From NCBI RefSeq assembly GCF_003334785.1, contig NZ_QOWV01000011.1: a stretch of 64,000 nucleotides of DNA; one strand, written 5' to 3'. Below the pieces are notes generated by a model that was not told where the DNA came from, ran no database searches, and saw only the letters and a list, made by a program, of their open reading frames with translations. Below are positions 18,859-39,816 of this stretch, one piece after another. The translations under genes and the position numbers were made by a program. The stretch is from Escherichia coli (GTDB lineage: Bacteria; Pseudomonadota; Gammaproteobacteria; Enterobacterales; Enterobacteriaceae). Each line of letters begins with the position of its first letter. The stretch's first letter is position 1.

Positions 18859-19306
18859 CCATCAACGAAAAAGCCCACATCTGTGGGCTTTCATGTTACC
18901 AGGAGCCGCGGCTCCTTTGCGTATCCTTTTATGTCTCCTCACCGTCTGGTCGGTGTTTTGCTGAGACTTCTAACTTCCTGTTTTTGTTGGTGTTGTCCTT
19001 ACACCGTCCAATCATGATTGGTGGGCTGGCGTCCCTGTAAATAACTATTCATGACATTGATTTTTAGGTTTATTTTAAATTTATATGTGGTCCTAAAAAG
19101 GAACCATAAATCTTAACGGTATGAGTTCTCACGAATAGCCGATTTGCAAATTGTATCAAAAGACAACAAATTTCTCAGTTCAACTCCCTATTGGTAACTG
19201 AACTCATAGATAAGGTCCGTTATGCTTTTCATAGGTAGACGAATACGGTAACTTTTCTCAATAGCACGATTCTATCCGCAGTACCAGCATAGGTGGAGAA
19301 TGGATT

Positions 19307-20002
19307 TTGAACAATTGGTCACCAGAGCATACAAAAGTCATCAAGAGCTGGTTTAAGATTGATACATATCGCAAATTTGAAGACCTCTCATTGATTCAGT
19401 TCTACCATGAGATATGGGCCCGTAAATTGTTCTTTAAGGAGTATCGGGAAGAGTTTGAGAGCAGAGCACTTGCGGGTTACTTCTCAAAAATTTTTAGTGG
19501 CAATCCTTTTTTAATTGAAGAAGGACAACTGGGATACATGACTCCTGCCAACAAACTTTTTCAACCTCCCCATTTCTTTCTCACAACTCTTGATCGCCTT
19601 GCTGAAACGAGCATTATTGCAATGCAACGTGGAGGTTTTCTTTGGCATGAAGGTGACAATTATTCTATAAACGCAGAGCTTCGAGAAGAATCACTTTCAG
19701 ACATTATGCCAGATCAGTTTACACGAACGATCATGTTCGAGATTGATCTGGCAAGTGGCACAGACGAAGAGATTGCAGAGTCGCTTAAAGCTGCATTACC
19801 GCAGTGGCGTAAAGTTAAGGGTATTGATGAAAACCCATTGGAATCTGTTCGTTTTGGATACGGAACTATCAAGAAACTCATCAGTTATCGTGTAATACCT
19901 ATGCTTGATATCCTGGTGTGGGCAGCCGTTAAAAAATCCGTGTCTCTGACGACAGGTTATCCAGACTACTATATACAGACGATGACGAAGAAAGCGAAAT
20001 GA
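19307..20002 (+). CDS. Hypothetical protein
   Basis: 231 aa ORF at left edge of AT-rich cargo; followed by terminator hairpin. Confidence 0.5.
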   Translation: MNNWSPEHTKVIKSWFKIDTYRKFEDLSLIQFYHEIWARKLFFKEYREEFESRALAGYFSKIFSGNPFLIEEGQLGYMTPANKLFQPPHFFLTTLDRLAETSIIAMQRGGFLWHEGDNYSINAELREESLSDIMPDQFTRTIMFEIDLASGTDEEIAESLKAALPQWRKVKGIDENPLESVRFGYGTIKKLISYRVIPMLDILVWAAVKKSVSLTTGYPDYYIQTMTKKAK

Positions 20003-20195
20003 GACAGTCCAGCCAAATCAAAGATACCGACAGGCCTTTGGCTCTTAAATCCTGCACAACTGACTTTATCCGACAATTCCATTACTTCATGAACAAAAAC
20101 AGCCATTTAAAGCAAATGAAAGTCTCTGATGTAATGAAACTATCGGATTAAGAGTTAATTAATAACTGTCTGTTTTTTTATTATAAAAATAAACT

Positions 20196-20226
20196 AAAAG
20201 CACTACTGTAAATGGTGCTTTTTTTT
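20196..20226 (+). terminator. Rho-independent terminator-like hairpin
   Basis: Stem aagcac/gtgctt with 10-nt loop followed by T8 run. Confidence 0.5.
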
Positions 20227-20433
20227 GCGATTTTTACTTTAAACCGGCCATTTTTACACTTGCTATAAAACAGGGGAATTTCAGCTACTCTCAAGTTCCC
20301 TTGTTCTGTACTGCACCAACTTCGAGAAAACCATCCTGCACAGCAGCGAAGAACCTCCGCTTCAGGAGCTTCGCTCCTTTCTTTTCCCAACTGCTCGTAT
20401 AGTGACTTCACCGCAACGACAAGGGATAACGAA

Positions 20434-37775: not shown

Positions 37776-38057
37776 GCACAAAACCTCATGGATGATTCAA
37801 TACAATGTAGAGGATAAAATTGATCAAATTTTAACCGAATTCAACTGTTTTATCATTGATTAGAGCGAATTTGGTAGTTCTTCGAGGTGTATGATAATCG
37901 AGAAGAGATGTGAATTATTTAGCTGATATGACCGACAGCTTTCGTTATGTGGCCTCAAGGTACCCATTTGTAAATGGCTATGCTTAGTCCACATAGGTTA
38001 ATGGTGTGATCATTAATTCTTCAAATAAATCAAGATAGTTAACCCATCATGGAAGAG

Positions 38058-39287
38058 TTATGCGGCAATAACTTTGTATTTTTGAGACGAAACATAGTCA
38101 CTCCACCATTGCATGAGAACCACACGTTCTGTGAGATACTCTGCACGATTGTAGGCTGCAATTATTTCATCTTTTTTCGAGTGGGCAAGGGCGGCTTCTA
38201 AGACATCAGTTCTAAACTTGCCACACTCCTCAGCCGCCGTTCTAGCGATTGATCGCATACCATGAGCTACAAGCTCACCTCCGAAGCCCATACGGATTAT
38301 AGCCGCATTAGCTGTTTGTTCATGCATGTGATTGAGTGGAGCTTTGATACTGGGAAAAACCCACTCTCTATGCCCGCTGATGGCTTTCATTGAATCCAAG
38401 ACTCGCAAAGATTCTTTGCTCAGTGGAACTTTGTGAGGCTTCTTCATTTTCATAAACTCCGCCGGGATGTTCCACATGCTGGTTTCTATATCAATATCTG
38501 ACCATCTTGTGCGAACAGCTTCACCAGGGCGAACCCATGTGAGAAGTTGCCACTCAATCAGTAGCCTTGTTTCTAAACGGATAGAAGCATTGTTTAGAGC
38601 AACCAGGAAGCGGGGGAGTTCGGAAGGGGGTAATGCTGGCATATTCTGTTTTTTTGGCTTGCTGAACCGTTGCCCCAGGTTGTCAGCCGGATTGAATTCT
38701 ATGAGTTCTTCTGTTGCTGCATAGCGGAAAATTTCATTCAGGCGGGATATGACGCGGCGAAGTGTTTCAAGGACACCTCGTTTTTCTATGGGGTCTAAAT
38801 GCTGTTTAAGCATTTTAGGGCGAATCTCCTTAATGGGGGTATCACCCAACGTTGGAAAGATATTTCTCTCTAGGCTTCGCCAGATGTCGTTAGCATGATC
38901 CTGGGAGATGCCTGACGTTTTGACTTTCTCATCAAGCCACTTCTTGGCTACTGCTTGAAATGTATGTTCCGTTGCATCCTTAAGGGCATTGGCTTTGTGG
39001 GTGTTATGAACTTGTGGGTCTATACCATTTGCAAGCAACGACAAGTACTCATCACGTAAAGCTCGTGCCTTCGCAAGTGTAAGGTGAGGATAGGTTCCTA
39101 AGCTCACCTTAGTTCGCTTTTTGGTCACAGGCACTGCATATCTGAAATACCAATTTTTCTTTCCTCCCTTCGCTAAGGGGGCGATTCGCAGGAGCAAACC
39201 ATCGCCGTCAAAAAGGTTAACCTCTTTCTCGGCAGGTTTGGTGCTTTTGATTTCAGTGTCAGTGAGCTTCTTAGCGATTTTTGCCAT
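38058..39287 (-). CDS. P4-type tyrosine integrase (IntA-like) next to ssrA
   Basis: Start at MAKIAKKLTDTEIKS (ATG 39287) in ORF 38058-39431; C-terminal catalytic region with HGMRSIARTAA and terminal tyrosine context; directly 5' of tmRNA 3' end. Confidence 0.85.
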   Translation of the reverse strand: MAKIAKKLTDTEIKSTKPAEKEVNLFDGDGLLLRIAPLAKGGKKNWYFRYAVPVTKKRTKVSLGTYPHLTLAKARALRDEYLSLLANGIDPQVHNTHKANALKDATEHTFQAVAKKWLDEKVKTSGISQDHANDIWRSLERNIFPTLGDTPIKEIRPKMLKQHLDPIEKRGVLETLRRVISRLNEIFRYAATEELIEFNPADNLGQRFSKPKKQNMPALPPSELPRFLVALNNASIRLETRLLIEWQLLTWVRPGEAVRTRWSDIDIETSMWNIPAEFMKMKKPHKVPLSKESLRVLDSMKAISGHREWVFPSIKAPLNHMHEQTANAAIIRMGFGGELVAHGMRSIARTAAEECGKFRTDVLEAALAHSKKDEIIAAYNRAEYLTERVVLMQWWSDYVSSQKYKVIAA

Positions 39288-39453
39288 GTTTGGGACCCTC
39301 ATGTTTTGGACCCTTTGTGTTGGGTCCCAAAAAGGGTGCCATAACGAGTAGATTCTAGCAATTCTCGGTAGACTACTATAGACGTAAAAAAGCCCGCAAG
39401 GCTGGTTCCATGCGGGCTTGATAGACTTCACTGAACTTCAATATATCAAAAAT

Positions 39454-39816
39454 TGGTGGAGCTGGCGGGAGTTGAACCCGCGTCCGAAATTCCTACATCC
39501 TCGGTACTACATGCTTAGTCAGTCTTTACATTCGCTTGCCAGCTGCGGACGGACACGCCACTAACAAACTAGCCTGATTAAGTTTTAACGCTTCAACCCC
39601 AGGCAGGGCTTCCACGCGATCTCTTTTGGGTTTGACCTCTCTTGATCCCCGTCCTAAGAGCGGAGGCTAGGGAGAGAGGGCTCTAAGCAGGTTATTAAGC
39701 TGCTAAAGCGTAGTTTTCGTCGTTTGCGACTATTTTTTGCGGCTTTTTACGAGGCCAACCGCCCCTCGGCATGCACCTTGGGTTTCGCAAATCCCGTCGA
39801 ATCCAGAATCAGCCCC
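39454..39816 (-). ncRNA. ssrA: tmRNA (SsrA)
   Basis: 363 nt; minus-strand sense begins ggggctgattctggattcgacggg and ends ...gggttcaactcccgccagctccacca; tag-encoding region present. Confidence 0.95.

Follow-up and report, generated by a model that had tools for sequence, protein, structure and literature searches.

What kind of element occupies the end of the tmRNA gene, ssrA, in an Escherichia coli chromosome whose flank is 99.97% identical to that of K-12, though in K-12 CP4-57 occupies the same site? In a window of 64,000 nt (the whole stretch of DNA analysed), this position holds a 20,421-bp block that a sequence-only reading had described as a mosaic integrative-mobilisable island replacing CP4-57. 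The replacement is borne out by the K-12 comparison, and the proposed nature of the block is supported by a P4-type integrase, mobilisation genes and the absence of annotated transfer-pore genes. We consider it probable, at roughly three chances in four, that the block is an integrative mobilisable element (IME) integrated at ssrA by a P4-family tyrosine integrase.

Boundaries, attachment sites and empty site

The island is distinct in composition and ends at ssrA. Its GC content is 37.0%, against 50.1% for the flank at 39453-64000, and per-kb values run at 0.30-0.45 over 19-39 kb of the window, in agreement with the sharp drop noted earlier at about 19.0-39.3 kb. Outside the island, at 10-16 kb, lies a second stretch of low GC (ygaQ/ileY/ypjBC), which K-12 also has. 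The right boundary is tmRNA with an adjoining P4-type integrase, as first proposed: ARAGORN and Rfam (295.8 bits) place ssrA on the minus strand at 39454-39816, and its 3′ terminus provides the proximal attachment core, TTGGTGG, at 39453-39459. The integrase gene (38058-39287, minus strand, ATG at 39287; 409 aa) begins 166 nt from the ssrA 3′ end, matches phrog_1 at 1e-72 and shares 49% identity with K-12 IntA. Tandem TTGGGACCC-like repeats at 39285-39335 span the integrase start and the region upstream.

The distal attachment junction (19018-19031) consists of TTGGTGG at 19018-19024, identical to the ssrA end, and GCTGGCG at 19025-19031, an imperfect continuation of ssrA homology supplied by the element (K-12 'psaA'); from 19032 on, the DNA is island-specific. 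The left-end TTGGTGGGCTGGCG (19018-31) is thus an imperfect copy of the ssrA 3′ end TTGGTGGAGCTGGCG (39453-67), the resemblance that had been remarked on, with an exact att repeat just 7 nt long and no repeats of at least 11 nt between the island ends. To the left of this junction the flank is that of K-12, identical up to the annotated 14-nt 'psaA' pseudo-ssrA. CP4-57 shares with the island both the chromosomal slot, to the base, and the TTGGTGGGCTGGCG distal junction. In AH02, a relative, the core and the island-side sequence at the distal junction are identical despite a different outer neighbour.

The empty-site mapping that had been suggested places these ends exactly. When the flanks are joined in silico, the resulting sequence occurs uninterrupted and at 100% identity in 2,524/5,426 complete E. 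coli genomes (46.5%; genomes counted with a match across at least 80% of the 400-nt query), from which it follows that the island ends are exact.

Mobilisation genes and a candidate origin

Every gene listed in the sequence-only reading is present: the integrase, an AlpA-like regulator, MobC/MobA, an HTH protein, two lipoproteins, the ankyrin operon, the NACHT/RelA-SpoT pair, and a serine recombinase with two ParB proteins. At the att-distal end lies a DUF6387 family gene (19307-20151, plus strand; phrog_23422, 2.4e-20), conserved among family members, which a 1-bp deletion at 19931 frameshifts in the window and which is intact (281 aa) in other carriers. It is followed, behind a strongly conserved leader (20230-20433), by a gene for an AlpA-type HTH regulator or excision factor of 68 aa (20434-20640, plus strand), with matches to phrog_66 (7.6e-11) and phrog_2790 (3.1e-10), both annotated 'excisionase and transcriptional regulator', and 36% identity to K-12 AlpA. 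Two small hypothetical genes come next on the plus strand (20661-20960, 99 aa; 21173-21484, 103 aa), partly conserved in relatives and without family matches.

The central part of this arm pairs a DNA-binding protein with conserved non-coding DNA. The protein (22026-22589, minus strand; 187 aa) is 91-95% identical in five other genera and gives weak Pfam matches (HTH_36, 0.0019; Phage_rep_O, 0.024; Rep3_N, 0.12); its AF2 model is poor (pLDDT 52, too poor for structure search), with a helix-helix-helix-strand-strand pattern suggestive of a winged helix. It is a candidate initiator or repressor acting on the adjoining repeats. These sit within a conserved non-coding region of about 1 kb (22590-23628), AT-rich at its ends, that contains three 49-bp direct repeats (23031-23164; core AAATACGCTTCGCGCA) and a GC-rich segment (23160-23440) conserved at 93-99%. 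We regard this region as a candidate cis-acting origin (oriV and/or oriT). It has no Rfam match, no perfect DnaA box and no similarity to plasmids, and its predicted fold is unremarkable (z = -0.36). Of the earlier description of iteron-like repeats with an HTH protein, then, the repeats and the protein stand, and an iteron or replication function is at most suggested. Beyond the region lie hyp141 (23629-24054, plus strand) and, on the minus strand, lipoproteins of 106 aa (24196-24516) and 132 aa (24543-24941; a homologue in a relative is annotated as BamE-domain) and a zinc-ribbon/membrane protein of 91 aa (24979-25254), in an order conserved within the family.

The mobilisation genes proper adjoin this backbone. 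The relaxase (25440-26669, minus strand; 409 aa) has a MobA/VirD2-type nuclease domain (PF03432, 3.5e-22; NCBIfam matches to MobB, TraI_MobP and MbpB), with the invariant catalytic Y19 and H106-D-D...H113-x-H115 (HxDD...HxH). A (TGGCAC)n repeat (25797-25836) specifies a (PV)n linker that differs in length between strains, and the gene measures 1230-1266 bp across carriers. Its nearest plasmid relatives, at 43% over the N-terminal 250 aa, are relaxases of IncQ2-type plasmids such as pBRST7.6, which MOB-suite assigns to MOBP; these plasmids are small and replicate with RepA/RepC, whereas the island is chromosomal, and neither they nor other plasmids have detectable DNA similarity to its conserved non-coding region. 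The MobC-like relaxosome accessory protein (26666-27073, minus strand; 135 aa) is 42% identical over 86 aa to the annotated MobC of pBRST7.6 (E = 9e-22) and has a single, weak NikA-like match in Pfam. Upstream of mobC, a 13-nt inverted repeat (GGTATACCATTTG/CAAATAGTATACC, 27173-27199) is a candidate operator or oriT arm; its sequence and the region around it are not conserved in family relatives. Neither at this site nor at the other oriT candidate (23160-23440) did we find a conserved nic motif or similarity to plasmid oriTs.

Together these features suggest how the element might move. The integrase would insert it into the last 6-7 nt of ssrA (TTGGTGG, the CCACCAA end), and by analogy with CP4-57 (AlpA/IntA) and with PIMEs, in which alpA is essential for excision (bioRxiv 10.64898/2026.01.12.698999), the AlpA-type regulator at the integrase-distal end would trigger excision of the element as a circle. 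The winged-helix protein, the 49-bp repeats and the conserved non-coding segment may let the circle replicate. The relaxase and its MobC-like partner would nick the putative oriT, and the single strand would then be brought to the secretion machinery of a conjugative plasmid or ICE present in the same cell. Such reliance on a helper is proposed since genes for a pore or a coupling protein are missing from the annotation of the island: PGAP annotation of a near-identical copy (7 mismatches and 2 single-base indels from the window island) contains no T4SS mating-pore or coupling-protein genes, and none appeared in family searches that between them covered all ORFs, if not each ORF in every library.

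The block could alternatively be a fixed remnant, a former IME now inherited vertically as a chromosomal defence or accessory island of one E. coli lineage. All seven sampled full-length carriers (of 56) have near-identical flanks (0.07-0.4 SNP per kb), a pattern that agrees better with vertical inheritance within a single lineage than with repeated acquisition, and the excised-circle (attP) junction was not found in the 5,426 E. coli genomes or the metagenome collection searched. Signs of decay are also present, namely the DUF6387 frameshift of the window, a NACHT gene that is split in chicken strains, and restriction-enzyme and IS remnants; and in many E. coli the int-SerRec-ParB arm alone is left after IS-mediated deletions. 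Against this, the reading frames of Int, AlpA, the relaxase and MobC are intact, the relaxase catalytic residues are conserved and both att cores are whole. The ssrA site, moreover, is empty in nearly half of genomes and holds CP4-57 on the near-identical K-12 background, and backbones in other genera are nearly identical. We therefore find fixation a doubtful account of the island, if one to be kept in mind.

Cargo and the serine recombinase/ParB trio

The variable slot for cargo, between the mobilisation core and the integrase, holds a restriction-enzyme remnant, a NACHT and RelA/SpoT operon, an IS remnant and a serine recombinase/ParB/ParB trio. On the mobC side, an ankyrin-repeat operon on the minus strand (27275-28228, 317 aa; 28243-28683, 146 aa; 28686-29042, 118 aa) accompanies the mobilisation core in relatives. 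The C-terminal part of a DUF4928/type II restriction endonuclease follows (29265-29537, minus strand; PADLOC REase_II, 7.5e-42), a remnant covering profile positions 214-301 of 331; PGAP marks partial genes here. In relatives the slot holds instead a type I R-M system, a Gabija-like nuclease/helicase pair or Hxs/TIGR04141.

The next piece of cargo is an operon on the plus strand (30368-33387) that pairs a STAND/NACHT NTPase with a RelA/SpoT-domain pyrophosphokinase. The NTPase (30368/30377-32482) combines an N-terminal NA-iREase2 domain (PF22723, 3.2e-33) with a pentapeptide-repeat C-terminus (Pentapeptide_4, 0.007); the NACHT match itself is weak (0.008), Walker-type motifs (GFGKT and DGFDE) are visible in the translation, and RefSeq names it a NACHT domain protein. 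The overlapping second gene (32482-33387) encodes an intact synthetase-type domain (PF04607, 7.8e-15; best PDB match RelP), as in toxSAS/CapRel-type synthetases. The pair is conserved in Vibrio, Pseudomonas and Morganellaceae. As in bNACHT/Avs systems, a NACHT-type NTPase carries a variable C-terminal repeat region, and like both these systems and toxSAS/CapRel the cassette sits in mobile, variable contexts. Unlike in bNACHT/Avs, the effector is not fused at the N-terminus but made as a separate protein, and the NACHT N-terminus is an inactive-REase adaptor domain. The operon probably encodes abortive-infection phage defence. PADLOC v2 has no model for the pair, and the bNACHT/STAND literature searched contained neither a mention nor an experimental test of the cassette.

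The arm next to the integrase is of wider occurrence. It begins at 33647, where homology with the L004 island starts and which is the left edge of an arm common to other E. coli ssrA islands, with a non-coding stretch (33647-34439) bearing an IS3-family transposase remnant; the corresponding DNA of relatives is annotated by PGAP as partial IS3 or integrase-core pseudogenes. Three overlapping minus-strand genes follow, for two ParB/RepB-like proteins (34440-35336 and 35333-36229) and a large serine recombinase (36219-37781). This trio is found in 620/5,426 complete E. coli genomes (11%), BL21 derivatives included, and is conserved in Erwinia, Salmonella and Geobacter.

Such a distribution raises the question of whether two or more elements have accreted here behind one ssrA integrase: an IME core running from DUF6387 to hyp146, and a separate SerRec/ParB/ParB island that brought or exchanges the defence cargo. 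The trio is five times commoner in E. coli than the mobilisation core (620 vs 125 genomes), AH02 has the same arms without it, its neighbouring cargo differs by strain, and in Geobacter and Salmonella it forms a conserved operon bordering defence genes. Its outer edge is marked by the IS3 remnant, and tandem accretion at ssrA is directly seen. However, no delimiting repeats or att-like sites of a nested element are present, and in Erwinia sp. S63, a distant member of the relaxase family, the trio has the same relative position, a placement that points to an optional module of the backbone. IS remnants lie at the cargo boundaries, and IS or homologous recombination is thus enough to explain these. 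A composite origin appears rather unlikely, and we retain the reading of a single IME.

Relatives and named element families

The full-length island is rare in E. coli and its backbone is widespread. Only 56/5,426 E. coli genomes carry it in full, and PGAP gives 'hypothetical protein' for 11/23 annotated CDS, so that it is not a common, fully annotated element. Backbone order is kept in Phytobacter, Citrobacter, Pseudocitrobacter, Kluyvera and Superficieibacter at 78-97% amino acid identity, and across Enterobacterales family integrases and insertion sites vary (tmRNA, several tRNA genes, beside mutS). The earlier term 'mosaic' is justified because arms and cargo have been swapped between relatives: the modules in common differ from one relative to the next, and so, widely, do their identities. 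AH02 is close in its left arm (81-97% amino acid identity) and integrase (91%), with a relaxase of just 51%; in Pseudocitrobacter a left arm of 78-93% and a relaxase of 85% identity go with another integrase, at tRNA-Leu; and EC21Z-101 and the BL21-derived C43 have the int-SerRec-ParB arm only, at 97%.

Named elements resemble the island in part. CP4-57 shares the P4-family integrase and AlpA-type regulator, but carries satellite and toxin-antitoxin cargo without a relaxase, where the island has a relaxase, MobC and different cargo. As had been claimed, the two are not collinear: there is no blastn match, and tblastx matches are confined to the integrase (38085-39436). PIMEs are defined by the co-occurrence of a replicase with trbJ/trbL, and carry a replicase (repA/repC) with oriV, an integrase and alpA (bioRxiv 10.64898/2026.01.12.698999). 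The island likewise has an integrase, alpA, a replication-like module, mobilisation genes, a defence-rich accessory region and cross-genus spread. Its counterpart of the PIME replicase is putative only (the winged-helix protein with its weak Rep-like matches beside the 49-bp repeats), and TrbJ/TrbL are absent both as PGAP gene names and as family matches among the island ORFs searched. PIME1 has a divergent luxR regulator, and none is seen here. EARL islands insert at tRNA-Asn, unlike this island at ssrA. These ROD21-like islands are similarly enterobacterial, with a P4-like integrase, an excision factor and a relaxase, and are thought mobilisable; their relaxase is MobA/MobL (MOBQ), and they have a TraD homologue and type IV pilin genes (PMC6035254). 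The present island has instead a relaxase of the PF03432 type together with MobC, and neither TraD nor pilin among its annotated genes.

That the block is a P4-like phage satellite or cryptic prophage of the CP4-57 kind is highly improbable: a P4-family integrase and AlpA homologue do sit at the CP4-57 site, which true P4-like satellites use (one with primase-helicase and helper-exploitation genes sits in tandem in L010 and L012), but primase-helicase (alpha), Psu, Delta/Ogr, Sid and virion genes are absent from the annotation and PHROG matches, these matches comprise integration proteins, ParB-like proteins, families of unknown function and one weak partial Cor exclusion protein, and a relaxase and MobC are present instead.

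A broader possibility, tentative when all its parts are taken jointly, is that the island represents an undescribed Enterobacterales IME family. Its members would excise, replicate from the wHTH/49-bp-repeat origin and hitch-hike via the MOBP-like relaxase, swapping integrases between tmRNA, several tRNA genes and the mutS region. They would also shuttle defence cassettes, including a NACHT sensor that activates a separate RelA/SpoT pyrophosphokinase, and carry a phylum-spanning SerRec/ParB/ParB module for island building or maintenance.

Few sites in E. coli receive mobile DNA as often as the tmRNA gene. Since IMEs at this site, hotspot #9, have already been reported (PMC10121019), the island is a further case of a documented kind; as such it leaves knowledge of IMEs unchanged and is a rather unexceptional representative of its class of mobile islands. 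It does offer a base-exact example of an IME, with a verified empty site, in place of the textbook K-12 prophage. Its backbone, found in many genera of enterobacteria, differs from those of the named IME families with which we compared it (PIME and EARL), and in its NACHT and RelA/SpoT operon it carries a candidate system of phage defence whose effector has a gene of its own.

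Boundaries of the island at ssrA

The window follows the E. coli chromosomal order gabD–glaH–ygaQ–ileY–ypjBC–ypjA, then the island, then ssrA–smpB–ratA … and the pheA leader, with tmRNA (ssrA) on the minus strand at 39454-39816. A drop in GC between 19 and 39 kb, read from the sequence alone as the mark of an island, proved correct both as observation and as interpretation: GC per kb falls to 0.30-0.45 over this interval, and the island averages 37.0% compared with 50.1% for all sequence to its right. Low GC is also seen at 10-16 kb (ygaQ/ileY/ypjBC), in a second block that K-12 shares and that is separate from the island. 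That block (10000-16200; ygaQ pseudogene, ypjBC and a pinH remnant) itself resembles an older island, and its ileY (tRNA-Ile, CAU anticodon; 13229-13304) is labelled tRNA-Met by ARAGORN. The adhesin-like autotransporter gene ypjA has 2,058 bp fewer than in FDAARGOS_1248 (at about 18550-18554), reflecting either loss of an internal segment or collapse of a repeat.

The sequence-only reading had placed tmRNA at the right edge and a sequence like the ssrA 3′ end at the left, and had suggested aligning E. coli genomes to find the empty site; the junctions and the empty site agree with this placement. On the plus strand from 39453, the ssrA 3′ end reads TTGGTGGAGCTGGCGGG, while the left end (19018-19031) reads TTGGTGGGCTGGCG followed by island-specific TCCCTGTAA. 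Direct repeats of the ssrA end of at least 11 nt are absent from the island ends, and the true core is 7 nt. Four comparisons fix the island ends to the base. First, the left chromosomal flank matches K-12 exactly up to the annotated 14-nt pseudo-ssrA "psaA" that closes CP4-57, the element occupying this slot in K-12. Second, the homologous island of E. coli strain AH02 has a different integrase element as its outer neighbour, yet the junction TGGTGGGCTGGCG and the island-side sequence are the same. Third, chicken strains carry a P4-like satellite inserted between island and ssrA, where the new internal junction reads TTGGTGGGCTGGCGGAG. Fourth, when window 18818-19017 was fused in silico to 39453-39652, the resulting empty site was recovered without a break at 100% identity; 2,524/5,426 complete E. 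coli genomes (46.5%) contain it over no less than 80% of the query.

Since the two junctions share only TTGGTGG (19018-19024 and 39453-39459), we infer strand exchange within the CCACCA(A) end of ssrA. The GCTGGCG after the distal core would come from the attP of the elements. Excluding the core, the island spans 20,421 bp (19032-39452), with a predicted attP of CAATATATCAAAAA-TTGGTGG-GCTGGCGTCCCTGTAA and a predicted attB of CAATCATGA-TTGGTGG-AGCTGGCGGG.

Gene content and classification

From the distal end toward ssrA, the island carries a DUF6387 gene, an AlpA-type regulator (phrog_66 and phrog_2790; 36% to K-12 AlpA), two small hypothetical genes, a 187-aa winged-helix (wHTH) protein, 1 kb of non-coding DNA containing three direct repeats of 49 bp, a 141-aa protein (hyp141), two lipoproteins with a zinc-ribbon/membrane protein of 91 aa, a relaxase (PF03432 at 3.5e-22; Tyr19 and HDD…HxH are invariant) and a MobC-like protein whose identity to the MobC annotated on IncQ2-type pBRST7.6 is 42% (E = 9e-22). 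These are followed by an ankyrin operon of three genes, a type II restriction enzyme gene of which the C-terminal part survives, a NACHT/RelA-SpoT operon (30368-33387), an IS3 remnant, two ParB/RepB-like genes with a large serine recombinase (34440-37781, minus strand; hereafter the trio) and, next to ssrA, a P4-family integrase (49% to IntA). Profile and protein matches thus confirm the P4-type integrase, AlpA-like regulator and MobC/relaxase genes recognized earlier, and the suspected lack of collinearity with CP4-57 holds, the integrase being the only match.

Several local features were also recorded. A 1-bp deletion at 19931 relative to other carriers shifts the DUF6387 frame, leaving an ORF of 231 aa instead of 281 aa. 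The relaxase gene contains a (TGGCAC)n hexanucleotide repeat (25797-25836) encoding a (Pro-Val)n linker, and its length differs (1230–1266 bp) between islands that are otherwise nearly identical. Two direct and one inverted TTGGGACCC-like motifs lie over the integrase start codon and upstream (39285-39335) and could be candidate sites for AlpA or the integrase arm domain. Strong conservation across family members extends over the alpA leader (20230-20433) and its GC-rich hairpin (AGCAGCGAAGAACCT / AGGAGCTTCGCTCCT); this leader may act in regulation.

The tmRNA locus is E. coli defence hotspot #9, which hosts prophages, P4-like satellites, IMEs and transposons (Hochhauser et al., PMC10121019). 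We conclude that the element is a cleanly delimited IME. It would work like PIMEs (bioRxiv 10.64898/2026.01.12.698999) and SGI1-type IMEs, with a replicase that is only a candidate. PIME membership is rejected because the trbJ/trbL genes that define PIMEs appear neither in the annotation nor among the family matches of the ORFs searched. Membership of the EARL (ROD21-like) islands (PMC6035254) is likewise rejected, as their defining TraD and pilin genes are missing from the annotation and the relaxase is of the PF03432 type instead of MobA/MobL. Gene content dismisses prophage, P4-like satellite and ICE readings; among the island annotations, none resembles a mating pore, coupling protein, primase-helicase or virion gene. 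No name for the family was found in the literature searched.

Family relationships and mosaic structure

Aligning the relaxase to one genome per species recovered 48 loci, nearly all in Enterobacterales and most on large, chromosomal-looking contigs. Phytobacter, Citrobacter, Pseudocitrobacter, Kluyvera and Superficieibacter keep the same gene order at 78–97% amino acid identity, as seen within 10-kb flanks, in which some loci show fewer than all genes. The family order is DUF6387–AlpA–(small genes)–wHTH–non-coding region–hyp141–three small envelope genes–relaxase–MobC–ankyrin–hyp146 and is joined to varying integration modules, at tmRNA, tRNA-Leu(CAA), tRNA-Arg(CCU), tRNA-Arg(UCU), tRNA-Pro(GGG) or beside mutS.

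Within E. coli, module sets and identities differ among strains, in line with the mosaic structure proposed earlier. At the ssrA site, AH02 shares the left arm (81–97% amino acid identity) and integrase (91%) with the window, its relaxase is just 51% identical, and it has a tyrosine-recombinase module in place of wHTH and Gabija-like nuclease/helicase cargo, without the trio. FDN-11 carries the trio (94–97% amino acid identity) at a tRNA-Arg site adjoining Hxs/TIGR04141 cargo, CX21 has the mobilisation core (77–96%) beside mutS, and EC21Z-101 and the BL21-derived C43(DE3) retain at ssrA only the int–SerRec–ParB–ParB arm (97% DNA identity; SerRec, serine recombinase), adjoining a type I R-M system or an IS1 deletion. 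At a threshold of at least 80% of the query covered, the full island is present in 56, the mobilisation core in 125 and the trio in 620 of the 5,426 complete E. coli genomes. MRE162 and NCTC9100 are among the strains that carry the island. Because modules are shuffled among strains and these counts differ, the label "mosaic" is well supported. In AH02 (5245-9615 of its locus) and FDN-11 (2851-7591), the wHTH/repeat module is swapped for two tyrosine recombinases and a large DNA-binding protein, an arrangement that recalls multi-integrase (GInt-like) modules.

Across genera, the 1 kb separating the wHTH gene from hyp141 is 82–88% identical, its best-conserved part being 23160-23440 (93–99% per 30-nt block), and the 49-bp repeat occurs in other genera in two or three copies with the core AAATACGCTTCGCGCA unaltered. 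Given its location and conservation, our best guess is that this region is a cis-acting origin (oriV and/or oriT). A structured RNA was rejected on an Rfam search with no match at E ≤ 1 and a fold z-score of -0.36. We found no plasmid similarity in the region and no perfect DnaA box, only 1-mismatch matches. The wHTH protein has weak Rep-like Pfam matches only, Cro-like HTH matches alone in a PDB sequence search (E about 0.2), and an AlphaFold model (pLDDT 52) too poor for fold search. An oriT was not located in the island: ATCCTG-type nic motifs are scattered, one relative has lost the copy that precedes alpA, and the sequence upstream of mobC is not conserved.

The trio genes overlap and form one operon, and both ParB proteins combine a ParB N-terminal domain containing GxxRxxA with a RepB-type C-terminus. 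The trio is conserved as a unit in Erwinia, Salmonella and Geobacter, lying in Geobacter sulfurreducens with core genes on one side and AbiEi/type I R-M genes on the other, and it occurs once per genome in the 620 E. coli carriers, including C43(DE3). The trio may serve optionally in maintenance, or it may be a second integrative element nested within the island.

Mobility and probable defence cargo

Intact Int, AlpA, relaxase and MobC frames and both att cores argue, at the sequence level, for present-day mobility, as does an ssrA site empty in almost half of genomes. On the ssrA-proximal side, the flanks of K-12 and the window are 99.97% identical, yet K-12 carries CP4-57, so elements have been exchanged on that background. 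Further elements have also landed in tandem at ssrA, one a P4-like satellite and the other combining DarT/NADAR with a lambdoid prophage. The satellite lies between island and ssrA in Korean chicken strains (two loci, 34806-45560), a DarT/NADAR pair and lambdoid prophage occupy that position in E. coli strain ETEC1716, and AH02 (locus 1-3000) has a further integrase element outside its island. Against mobility, the flanks of 7/7 sampled full-length carriers differ by just 0.07–0.4 SNP per kb, which suggests one lineage. A contiguous attP junction, as in an excised circle, was absent from the 5,426 complete E. coli genomes and a metagenome collection. The failure to locate an oriT also counts against mobility, and signs of decay include the DUF6387 frameshift in the window and a split NACHT gene in some strains.

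Among plasmids, the relaxase is closest to those of IncQ2 type (43%; MOBP by MOB-suite). IncQ2-type plasmids are mobilised by IncP-type helpers. A plasmid origin of the island itself is rejected: the best "plasmid" match, OX345050.1, is a 3.6-kb linear contig with island genes, probably a mis-binned chromosomal fragment.

The 704-aa NACHT protein has an N-terminal NA-iREase2 domain (3.2e-33), a NACHT NTPase with a weak direct match but visible GFGKT (Walker A) and DGFDE motifs, and C-terminal pentapeptide repeats. Its partner gene, overlapping by one base, encodes a RelA/SpoT domain (7.8e-15) with RxKxxxS, DxxGxR and EVQFRT motifs visible in translation; in the PDB, its product is matched best by RelP, a small alarmone synthetase. 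Homologues number >1,100. Three distant genomes were inspected (Vibrio campbellii, Pseudomonas protegens and Morganellaceae), and in each the two genes stay together as an operon, located at a prophage end or in an AlpA island. Neither the NACHT protein nor the trio has a PADLOC v2 model, and the RelA/SpoT and ankyrin proteins gain only weak partial matches to candidate families PDC-S33 and PDC-M72A; the pair is not mentioned in the bNACHT and STAND literature searched. We consider it a candidate defence system whose pyrophosphokinase effector has a gene of its own, and in which the STAND sensor would oligomerise on a phage cue and switch on the pyrophosphokinase, which in turn would make a toxic alarmone or modify tRNA and so abort infection. 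The island is an uncharacterised example of an already known class, whose trio and NACHT/RelA-SpoT modules may merit study of their own.
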